A stretch of DNA of 516 bases from Escherichia coli (GCF_003334815.1 NZ_QOWO01000129.1); one strand, 5' to 3'. Counted from the first letter of the stretch, positions 1-515 are shown. Made by a program: numbers and translations. The notes: generated from the letters alone by a model not told the origin.

Positions 1-113
1 TATGCAAGATTTGCCTGAACAGCACGATTCTGCATGATGTCGATTTGTGCGATTGCGTCCTTCTGCTGATCACCGGTTGGCTGATAAGTGGTGTTAAAAG
101 AAAATGCGCTCAT
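1..113 (-). CDS. N-terminal ~37 codons of a protein-coding gene (hypothetical protein); gene continues leftward beyond position 1
   Basis: ATG at 113..111 on the minus strand, preceded by AGGAGG (118..123) with a 4-nt spacer. An in-frame stop lies upstream at 149..147, so this ATG is the first start in the frame, and the frame stays open to position 1. Translation: MSAFSFNTTYQPTGDQQKDAIAQIDIMQNRAVQANLA. I do not recognise the family. The plus-strand frame 3 is also open over 3..131 but gives a Cys-rich peptide with no start, so the minus strand is favoured. The gene is absent from the supplied ORF track, presumably because it is edge-truncated. Confidence 0.55.
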   Translation of the reverse strand, partial: MSAFSFNTTYQPTGDQQKDAIAQIDIMQNRAVQANLA

Positions 114-123: not shown

Positions 124-143
124 GTGTTTAATGTTTTCAGCCC

Positions 144-158
144 CCATCACCCGTTGAG
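144..158. repeat. Direct repeat copy 1: CCATCACCCGTTGAG
   Basis: Matches 220..235 (CCATCACCCGTTTGAG) apart from one extra T. The copies start 76 bp apart, in the region upstream of the minus-strand gene. Confidence 0.8.
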
Positions 159-172
159 TTTCGGGAGCCGCG

Positions 173-188
173 GTTTTGACGTTTTGCG
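173..188. repeat. Tandem octamer GTTTTGAC-GTTTTGCG
   Basis: Two adjacent 8-mers differing at one position. The second copy starts the TTTTGCGG motif that recurs at 327..334, as a variant at 503..511 and inverted at 293..300. TTGACG (176..181) resembles a -35 hexamer, but I found no convincing -10 at 16-18 bp spacing. Confidence 0.55.
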
Positions 189-219
189 GGGACCTGCCGT
201 TTGTTCCCTCCGGTATTAA

Positions 220-235
220 CCATCACCCGTTTGAG
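220..235. repeat. Direct repeat copy 2: CCATCACCCGTTTGAG
   Basis: 15/16 identity with 144..158, with a single T insertion. Candidate paired protein-binding sites; function not established. Confidence 0.8.
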
Positions 236-292
236 AACCTTCGCCGCAAGGGGCATCACTGCCACGACCGGAAACGACTGTCCGGGGGCAGA

Positions 293-334
293 CCGCAAAA
301 GTTTTTGCCTGCTTTTGGGCAAAAAGTTTTGCGG
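293..334. repeat. 42-nt imperfect palindrome / hairpin-capable inverted repeat
   Basis: Arms 293..311 and 316..334 pair as 293-300 with 327-334 (8 bp), one G/G mismatch at 301/326, 302-309 with 318-325 (8 bp), and two G-U wobbles at 310/317 and 311/316, around a CTTT loop (312..315). That is 16 Watson-Crick pairs. No U-tract follows on either strand, so it does not look like an intrinsic terminator; an operator-type dyad or RNA hairpin is more likely. Confidence 0.85.
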
Positions 335-339
335 GATGT
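327..339. repeat. Direct repeat TTTTGCGGGATGT (left copy; partner at 503..516)
   Basis: Near-identical to TTTTGCCGGGATGC at 503..516 with one extra C. The two copies flank the GC-rich domain. The core CGGGATGT (332..339) is also the reverse complement of ACATCCCG (489..496). Confidence 0.75.
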
Positions 340-489
340 ACATTTCACCCCTGGACTGGCGGAGACGGTTGTGGCTGTCTGTGCCCCCGGCGACAGGGAC
401 TCATACGGGTGTGTGGCACCGGACACAACAACGGGCAGGGACCCGCCGCAACGACGAAGAGCGCGTGCGCGAAACGGCGTTGCCCCTCA

Positions 490-515
490 CATCCCGGCGG
501 CCTTTTGCCGGGATG
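490..515. other. GC-rich stem-loop (9-bp stem, 8-nt loop); function undetermined
   Basis: 490-498 (CATCCCGGC) pairs perfectly with 507-515 (GCCGGGATG), with 7 of 9 pairs G-C, around loop GGCCTTTT. The window ends at 516, so a plus-strand U-tract cannot be checked. There is no U-tract on the minus-strand side (the reverse complement of 480..489 is TGAGGGGCAA). Confidence 0.7.

Follow-up and report, generated by a model that had tools for sequence, protein, structure and literature searches.

Recurrent motif copies in an Escherichia coli leading-region sequence form stem arms of a probable Frpo/ssiD-type single-stranded DNA promoter

Introduction

Why should one short word recur on both strands of a non-coding stretch of Escherichia coli DNA? 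The window, by which we mean the whole stretch of 516 nucleotides analyzed here (NZ_QOWO01000129.1), contains several copies of TTTTGCGG and of related words, which the initial annotation had read as a short motif used five or more times and indicative of either a shared binding determinant or a modular origin of the region. Reading the window in full, we located every one of these strings exactly where that annotation had placed it (Table 1), and also found a mirror copy, GGCAAAAA at 318-325, that it had overlooked. What the recurrence means depends on what the non-coding region is, which strand of it matters, and how that strand folds.

Table 1. Features of the 516-nt window (coordinates from the first letter of the window)
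Feature	Position	Strand	Remarks
98-aa leading-region ORF, 5' end (37 codons)	1-113	-	hypothetical protein; 5817-6113 of locus L001
Frpo1/ssp1a homologue (probable class 1 ssDNA promoter)	140-490	+	plus strand is the transferred (T) strand; from similarity and nick-site orientation
Long imperfect ssDNA hairpin (predicted)	158-475	+	113 pairs, essentially one hairpin of ~320 nt
Motif copy GTTTTGAC	173-180		followed in tandem by GTTTTGCG at 181-188
Basal 5' arm tandem GTTTTGAC-GTTTTGCGGG	173-190	+	-35-like TTGACG at 176-181
Helix GTCCGGGGG / CCCCTGGAC	280-288 / 348-356	+
Inverted motif copy CCGCAAAA	293-300		inverted form of TTTTGCGG
Apical stem, 5' arm CCGCAAAAGTTTTTGCC	293-309	+	includes CCGCAAAA and TTTTTGCC
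Related word TTTTTGCC	302-309
Apical loop TGCTTTTG	310-317	+
Related word TTTTGGG	313-319
Apical stem, 3' arm GGCAAAAAGTTTTGCGG	318-334	+	includes TTTTGCGG and GGCAAAAA
Motif copy TTTTGCGG	327-334
Unpaired 9-nt bulge TACATTTCA	339-347	+	3' side; contains -10-like TACATT
Preferred -35 candidate TGGACT	352-357	+	inferred; inside the GTCCGGGGG/CCCCTGGAC helix
Preferred -10 candidate CTGTCT	375-380	+	inferred; 17 nt after the -35 candidate; TG at 372-373
Basal 3'-arm partner CCCGCCGCAACGACGAAGA	442-460	+	contains the partial mirror word CCGCAA
Separate 9-bp hairpin CATCCCGGC-GGCCTTTT-GCCGGGATG	490-515	+	inverted repeat I9
Variant motif copy TTTTGCCGG	503-511

The window carries a homologue of the F plasmid Frpo elements

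Positions 140-490 of the window are 92.55% identical over 349 nt (E = 1e-145) to Frpo1 of the F plasmid, which lies just upstream of ygeA (14005-13658 of the F locus, L002), and 84.8% identical to the second F copy, Frpo2, upstream of ssb. The ygeA-proximal copy was named Frpo and then renamed Frpo1, with Frpo2 for the ssb-proximal copy (PMC9849209); the names ssp1a and ssp1b, for 'class 1' ssDNA promoters, are later (PMC12672017; bioRxiv 10.64898/2026.01.09.698686). The window also matches the F ssiD sequence D90178.1 (Supplementary Table 2 of Samuel et al. 2024), one of five reference Frpo/ssi sequences in that study, in which the family is delimited by a BLAST E value of at most 1e-6 to a reference; the window falls within that limit. 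The total reported in that study is 13,089 Frpo homologues, spread over 6,006 elements.

Sequences of this kind are common on plasmids. By megablast the window matched 4162 E. coli records, nearly all of them plasmids, at a median of about three places per E. coli genome having any match, and in PLSDB it matched at least 5000 plasmids, mostly conjugative MOBF plasmids, from Escherichia, Klebsiella, Salmonella and Shigella. No match was found in a phage collection. The best-matching plasmid, CP099088.1 (IncFIA/IncFII, MOBF, MPF_F; locus L001), shows the gene order traM, oriT, SLT gene, DUF945 gene, 98-aa ORF, element, hok, psiB, ParB-like gene and ssb, with oriT/nic mapping near 3990 and the element, flanked by the 98-aa ORF and hok, occupying 6114-6516. 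This neighbourhood is the plasmid leading region, and the position of the element in it is that of Frpo1 in F, upstream of ygeA/ygeB.

The gene that the element would drive is the 98-aa ORF, whose ATG is the complement of 111-113 and is accompanied by the Shine-Dalgarno sequence AGGAGGA (complement of 117-123). Its product matched no Pfam or NCBIfam family and, when the two were compared, was not homologous to F YgeA. A further ORF of 68 aa (137-343, minus strand), which some records annotate as a 'single-stranded DNA-binding protein', was considered as a real gene; having no family match, it was treated as spurious. The element region is non-coding in function, and the proposal in the initial annotation that this non-coding stretch is a functional element holds up, in that the stretch is a homologue of the Frpo/ssiD promoter.

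The transferred strand is predicted to fold into one long hairpin

To set the strand we used GGGGTGT/GGTGCTTT, which we take to be the F nick-site sequence. This sequence is on the minus strand of the F locus, and an R100-like variant of it is on the plus strand of the CP099088.1 locus, about 2.1 kb before the element. As the window likewise aligns to the minus strand of the former and to the plus strand of the latter, its plus strand is the strand transferred during conjugation. The leftward ORF beginning at 113 has this plus strand as its template too.

Folded as DNA, positions 114-516 have a minimum free energy of -113.1 kcal/mol, compared with -73.8 +/- 4.8 kcal/mol for shuffled sequences (z = -8.16), and none of 100 shuffles was as stable. 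The same folded architecture as that of the window (Table 1) was found in 13 homologues from at least five lineages, namely the F, CP099088 and Klebsiella paralogues, the three copies of ColIb-P9, and Serratia, insect-metagenome and two Salmonella candidates. In a ten-sequence alignment (A1), 86.8% of cells were paired, versus 44-49% when the partners were slid by 1-3 columns, with the structure taken from one member of the alignment, a choice that favours that structure; 17 pairs carried changes on both sides. Covariation of this kind backs the hairpin, and we regard it as supporting rather than decisive.

The window holds, we conclude with high confidence, a copy of the Frpo/ssiD-type ssDNA promoter of F-like conjugative plasmids, in the Frpo1/ssp1a position, which would be active only as the folded T-strand. 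In the present analysis this conclusion draws on homology and position, on the strand and its fold, and on covariation together with strand asymmetry (see below); promoter and primer activity come from the literature on its homologues.

The motif copies are arms of stems in separately inherited modules

On both strands of the window TTTTGCGG occurs three times, against 0.08 expected, a count of three or more being reached in 0 of 200 dinucleotide-preserving shuffles; with one mismatch allowed it occurs four times (1.27 expected), which 10 of the 200 shuffles equalled. Within 114-516 there are six copies of TTTTGC (0.8 expected; 0 of 500 shuffles as high) and eight of TTTTG (3.0 expected; 1 of 500 as high). 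The motif therefore stands above the composition background, no shuffle having equalled the counts of TTTTGCGG or TTTTGC, and the initial annotation was right to regard it as non-random. The copies of TTTTGC are not independent events, because four of the six hits (303+, 327+, 300- and 324-) belong to a single 17-nt inverted repeat, 293-309 with 318-334, whose arms are 94% complementary. Each of these arms is in turn near-palindromic, so that the repeat was listed twice, once as inverted (I2) and once as direct (D2). A 9-nt direct identity, TTTTGCGGG, connects the basal copy (182-190) with the apical one (327-335); by itself it is not significant, an exact direct repeat of at least 9 nt being present in 40% of shuffles.

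The predicted fold accounts for each of the copies. In the apical stem, which is A/T-rich, 17 bp long and interrupted by the single mismatch G301 x G326, CCGCAAAA is the base-for-base partner of TTTTGCGG, and TTTTTGCC that of GGCAAAAA; TTTTGGG runs from the loop into the beginning of the stem. The basal tandem GTTTTGAC-GTTTTGCGG (173-189) pairs imperfectly with 442-460, and TTTTGCCGG comprises the loop end and the start of the 3' arm of the separate hairpin at 490-515. The copies thus occur in three contexts: the basal 5' arm, the apical stem, with four hits, and the separate small hairpin. They recur on both strands because the DNA is self-complementary, and the TTTTGCGG family is a by-product of the hairpin architecture.

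Two candidate terminators were set aside. The 490-515 hairpin has no T-run after its stem on either strand and was not reported by the terminator scan; its stem is kept, with a T-A to C-G change, in the insect Frpo'5 copy. The single terminator-like site in the window (447-434, minus strand) lies inside the stem, and one such site is the number expected by chance.

Comparison among homologues separates the basal copies from the apical ones. The basal tandem is near-invariant in IncF, Serratia and insect-metagenome copies and missing from the IncI copies of ColIb-P9. Compared segment by segment with the window, the ColIb-P9 copies gave 76-81% matches in the apical stem and 57-79% in the 3' promoter segment, and 9-19%, which equals the shuffled background, in the basal arms; the Serratia and insect copies gave 75-88% in the basal arms and 21-31% in the apical stem. 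These matches show the family to be mosaic, with a basal module and an apical/promoter module as its two parts. A 'modular origin', as first suggested for the region, is upheld to this extent, that the element is such a mosaic; the 8-mer is not its repeating unit.

What is preserved in the apical stem is pairing. In most homologues TTTTGCGG is replaced by TTTTGTGG, which gives a G.T wobble; the arms of Frpo2-type and IncI copies read ACGCAAAA(T/G)TTTTT(A/G)CC and GG(T/C)(A/T)AAAA(A/G/T)TTTTGTGG, and in these copies the central apical mismatch becomes a pair. In Frpo2-type copies G307-C320 is changed to A-T, a compensatory change. The duplex of A-tract and T-tract is kept in IncF, IncI, Salmonella and Serratia copies; insect-metagenome copies have a short GC-rich cap in its place, and the apical A/T stem is therefore not indispensable to the family. 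The pattern xxCATxTx of the 9-nt bulge is kept across lineages.

The most serious alternative to the hairpin reading is that the TTTTGCGG-like words are repeated duplex binding sites, of the operator or iteron kind, for one plasmid or host protein that regulates leading-region genes. Enrichment of the word over shuffles would be expected of such sites, the basal tandem hardly varies among IncF-like copies, and the apical arms, near-palindromes of the form GCAAAA-N-TTTTGC directly repeated 24 bp apart, have the look of sites for a dimer. The copies, however, are mixed in orientation and irregular in spacing, unlike iteron- or operator-type sites, and are spread over three structural contexts. 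Basal and apical copies are not inherited together, IncI elements having the apical part only and Serratia and insect elements the basal part only; as parts of modules with separate inheritance, they cannot represent a single common determinant. Most homologues, moreover, carry in the apical arm not the word itself but TTTTGTGG or variants that keep pairing or wobble, the G307-C320 to A-T change points to selection on pairing, and the papers on these promoters that we consulted describe no such protein. We consider binding sites very unlikely, and the claim that one short determinant is reused at least five times gives way to a reading in which the copies are stem arms of a ~320-nt ssDNA hairpin, in three unrelated contexts and, for the basal and apical copies, with different phylogenetic distributions.

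Whether the basal module (158-219 with 412-475), which carries GTTTTGACGTTTTGCGGGGACCTGC, is more than a stem is a separate matter. That it has a sequence-specific job of its own is a tentative and rather improbable reading, put forward because the module is the best conserved part in IncF, Serratia and insect copies yet is absent from functional IncI copies; such a job could be the positioning of the RNA-to-DNA primer hand-off, polymerase pausing, or a second -35-like entry (TTGACG).

An exact 12-nt direct repeat, CCATCACCCGTT, has its outer copy at 144-155, just outside the stem, and its inner copy at 220-231, in the 5' arm, and so brackets the basal module on its 5' side. Direct repeats of at least 12 nt occurred in 2% of shuffles, and the two copies of CCATCACCCGTT co-vary among homologues. 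The 5' base of the shorter Salmonella hairpins resembles the outer copy. The repeat and the Salmonella hairpins together suggest that an older, shorter hairpin later acquired the basal module, which may have joined this ancestral form as a discrete unit.

Strand asymmetry favours folded DNA over folded RNA

The plus strand was more stable than its complement in all 13 homologues, by a mean of 11.6 kcal/mol. In the window itself the values were -101.9 kcal/mol for the plus strand and -93.7 kcal/mol for the minus strand, the latter also folding well, as expected of any inverted repeat. A second strand test, likewise independent of the structure of the window, pointed the same way, with 83 G.T cells against 34 A.C cells. 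A consensus scan of both strands detected no duplex sigma-70 promoter in the window, which fits activity in the folded form only.

These results bear on a second alternative, namely that the hairpin acts not as folded DNA but as RNA, serving the downstream ORF as a structured 5' UTR or as a small RNA. Any transcribed inverted repeat will fold as RNA too, and an Rfam scan (E <= 1) gave one hit, by cmscan, to the precursor model of a long-hairpin miRNA, MIR8622. This hit is weak (20.5 bits against a gathering threshold of 197; E = 0.15) and reflects generic long-hairpin similarity, no Rfam family having been found at threshold. The sense RNA of the ORF, however, has the sequence of the minus strand, which folds less well in 13 of 13 homologues, and the pairs that would be wobbles on that strand (A.C on the plus strand) are in the minority. 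Nor was an upstream duplex promoter detected in the window, and published deletion and in vitro data attribute the activity to ssDNA (PMC9849209; PMC7690428; bioRxiv 10.64898/2026.01.09.698686). We accordingly give an RNA-level role even less credence than binding sites and retain the folded T-strand as the active form.

Candidate promoter boxes and a proposed mechanism

On sequence grounds, our preferred promoter boxes are TGGACT (-35) and CTGTCT (-10), which would place the start of transcription near 387-390. In the predicted fold T376, C379 and T380 are unpaired. The IncF, IncI, Serratia and insect copies all have either TGGAC(A/T/G) or TAGACA, and T372, G373, T376, G377, T378 and T380 are invariant in alignment A1, two of them (T376 and T380) despite being mismatched. 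IncF and IncI copies cease to resemble each other exactly at CCCCCGG (384-390). Both candidates match the consensus weakly (TGGACT 4/6, CTGTCT about 1/6), and the linear spacer is 20 nt in Frpo2-type copies, compared with 17 nt in the window.

Other candidate elements are TACATT in the 339-347 bulge, as an alternative -10, and the near-consensus TTGACG at 176-181. We rejected the combination of TACATT with TGGGCA (316-321, in the apical loop) as -35, since this -35 would be unpaired and insect-type copies are without TGGGCA. TTGACG was likewise rejected as the -35 of the family: it has no acceptable -10 at a distance of 16-19 nt and is absent from active IncI copies.

The apical A/T duplex may serve as an upstream element, either UP-like or curved. 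Like the UP elements and the upstream A-tract curvature of sigma-70 promoters, the apical stem is an AnTn-type A/T duplex upstream of the -35 candidate, and a UP element is indicated in the Frpo structures shown by Samuel et al. (2024). The composition of the stem fits a UP element; its position does so only on condition that the 339-347 bulge is extrahelical. UP elements, which stimulate transcription through binding of the alpha-CTD of RNA polymerase, lie at about -40 to -60, whereas linear numbering puts AAAAAGTTTT at roughly -66 to -57 as long as the 9-nt bulge is not looped out. If the model is correct, the two apical copies could possibly share a role as an A/T-tract duplex of this UP-like kind upstream of the -35 box.

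We propose that the plus strand enters the recipient as ssDNA during conjugation, whereupon 158-475 would snap back into the imperfect hairpin, with a stem that mimics duplex promoter DNA. Sigma-70 RNA polymerase of the host would bind this stem and transcribe the same strand toward lower coordinates, reaching the ORF whose start is at 113; the transcript could also prime synthesis of the complementary strand. Once the strand had been copied the hairpin would no longer form, and the promoter would be off.

Most of these steps have precedents in the F and IncI homologues. According to Masai and Arai (1997), as reported in PMC9849209 and PMC7690428, the ssDNA form folds into a stem-loop in which the -35 and -10 boxes are reconstituted; this stem-loop is bound in vitro by E. 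coli RNA polymerase, and the RNA made there can prime DNA synthesis. Early expression of leading genes in vivo depends on Frpo1 and Frpo2 (PMC9849209), start sites of class 1 promoters have been mapped by 5' RACE (PMC12672017), and ssp1a and ssp1b prime in vivo, early conversion downstream of them being rifampicin-sensitive (bioRxiv 10.64898/2026.01.09.698686).

The priming data are relevant to a third alternative, in which the element is a primosome-type ssi site (a PriA n'-site or a primase G4-type site) that serves only in complementary-strand priming and has no promoter role. The name under which the F homologue was originally catalogued, ssiD, denotes a single-strand initiation sequence, and the priming by ssp1a and ssp1b would be expected of such a site as well; but that priming is abolished in vivo by rifampicin and hence depends on RNA polymerase (bioRxiv 10.64898/2026.01.09.698686), so that priming and transcription are the same RNA polymerase event. 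A pure ssi site is therefore the more doubtful still. Least credible of all is a chance recurrence arising from the T-rich, GC-clamped local composition, for although the 9-nt basal-to-apical identity alone would be expected in 40% of shuffles, the TTTTGCGG and TTTTGC counts exceed those of every shuffle (0/200 and 0/500) and the copies lie within conserved stems.

Discussion

The window is most like Frpo1 of F (Masai and Arai 1997; Couturier et al. 2023), with which it shares the strand, the long hairpin, the apical CCGCAAAA...TTTTGCGG stem, the basal GTTTTGACGTTTTGCGG and a location in the leading region with hok/flm on one side and, on the other, the first genes after oriT. The two differ by about 7%, and the similarity stops at window position 133. 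The genes downstream are unrelated, the 98-aa ORF in the window and ygeA in F, so that the cargo differs. Frpo2 (ssp1b) of F and the ssb-proximal IncF copies are 85-87% identical to the window and have the same basal arms and fold; they differ in their apical arm, ACGCAAAATTTTTTACC/GGTAAAAAATTTTGTGG, which forms a perfect stem with a G.T wobble, and in having 3-4 extra nt in the 3' arm between the -35 and -10 candidates.

The ssi1-3 elements of the IncI1 plasmids ColIb-P9, R64 and pESBL (Frpo1-3; Bates 1999, Nasim 2004, Wen et al. 2025) resemble the window in overall hairpin architecture and also have the apical A/T stem, the bulge, the GTCCGGGGG/CCCCTGGAC helix and the TGTGG...CCCCCGG segment, whereas their basal arms are unrelated and thus without GTTTTGACGTTTTGCGG. 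The principle extends to ssp2, likewise a T-strand leading-region hairpin that rebuilds -35 and -10 boxes; ssp2, however, has no sequence homology to class 1 according to its authors and is also a replication roadblock.

With its sequence similarity, leading-region position, T-strand orientation and single long hairpin, the window is an ordinary member of a family that is already known, characterised by experiment and catalogued widely, and the recurrence with which we began is explained. The element and its mechanism have already been published (Masai and Arai 1997; Couturier 2023; Samuel 2024), and to these the window adds nothing new. Its modest added value is anatomical: the motif copies have been placed in the hairpin, the family has been shown to be a two-module mosaic, and the T-strand hairpin has been found to be consistently the stabler one. 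Frpo-type promoters allow conjugative plasmids, within minutes of arriving in a new cell and ahead of second-strand synthesis, to express protective genes, among them those for anti-SOS and anti-restriction functions. The same promoters also help to prime that second strand, and they thereby bear on the establishment of resistance plasmids in new hosts.

The gene downstream of the Frpo copy

The first gene putatively driven by the Frpo copy in the window encodes a 98-aa protein for which we found no Pfam or NCBIfam family, and which has no similarity to YgeA, encoded downstream of Frpo1 in the F plasmid. As similarity to F also ends at window position 133, the promoter has been kept and its cargo gene exchanged, relative to F. 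Three Frpo-like copies occupy a single leading region of the K. pneumoniae plasmid pKPC2_020037, located upstream of the 98-aa ORF, ssb, and a DUF3560/methyltransferase operon, respectively. BLAST placed matches at 8 positions in all on this plasmid, indicating more copies elsewhere on the cointegrate.

Features of the window and related loci
Feature	Window	Other locus	Strand	Remark
98-aa ORF	1-113	L001 (leading region of CP099088.1) 5817-6113	-	first gene putatively driven by the Frpo copy
68-aa ORF	137-343	L001 6137-6343	-	wholly within main hairpin
CCATCACCCGTT, exact 12-nt direct repeat	144-155 and 220-231
Third, weaker copy of repeat	69-79
9-bp GC-rich hairpin	490-515			directly 3' of main hairpin
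Three Frpo-like copies		L003 (pKPC2_020037) 14525-14876, 20001-20352, 23300-23644		one leading region

Elements in and around the main hairpin

In CP099088.1, as in other plasmids in GenBank, the 68-aa ORF is labelled "single-stranded DNA-binding protein"; in RefSeq it is labelled hypothetical. A search for an NCBIfam match returned none, and the alignment of homologues contains single-base gaps that would frameshift the ORF; the annotation is probably an artefact carried over from the neighbouring ssb context.

The exact copies of CCATCACCCGTT are spaced 76-77 nt apart, and a direct repeat of at least 12 nt arose in only 2% of shuffles. The first lies just beyond the hairpin base, adjoining the Shine-Dalgarno sequence, and the second lies within the 5' arm, where the hairpin fold pairs it with 400-411. 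Both copies covary across homologues (CCCG/CCCG, TCTT/CCTT, TCTG/CCTG). Read on the mRNA strand, the repeat is GGGUGAUGG and includes the anti-16S-like GGUGAU.

The small 3' hairpin was considered as a terminator and rejected, as it is not terminator-like. Its stem is retained in the insect Frpo'5 copy with a T-A to C-G change. Past the window end it is followed by GGGAGCGCAGGTCACGGCGCGACAG (L001 6516-6545), a sequence that ColIb-P9 Frpo3 likewise has as its 3' tail.

Mosaic composition of the Frpo family

We compared window segments 158-249 and 391-475 (basal arms), and 250-390, with the Frpo/ssi reference sequences of Samuel et al. 2024. The IncI ColIb-P9 copies have only the apical/promoter module in common with the window, the Serratia and insect-metagenome copies only the basal arms, and the Salmonella candidates have a shorter hairpin whose 5' base is similar to the outer CCATC...GAG repeat. 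Judged by sequence, Frpo-family elements are mosaics, and these patterns of sharing suggest that their modules have been exchanged or added.
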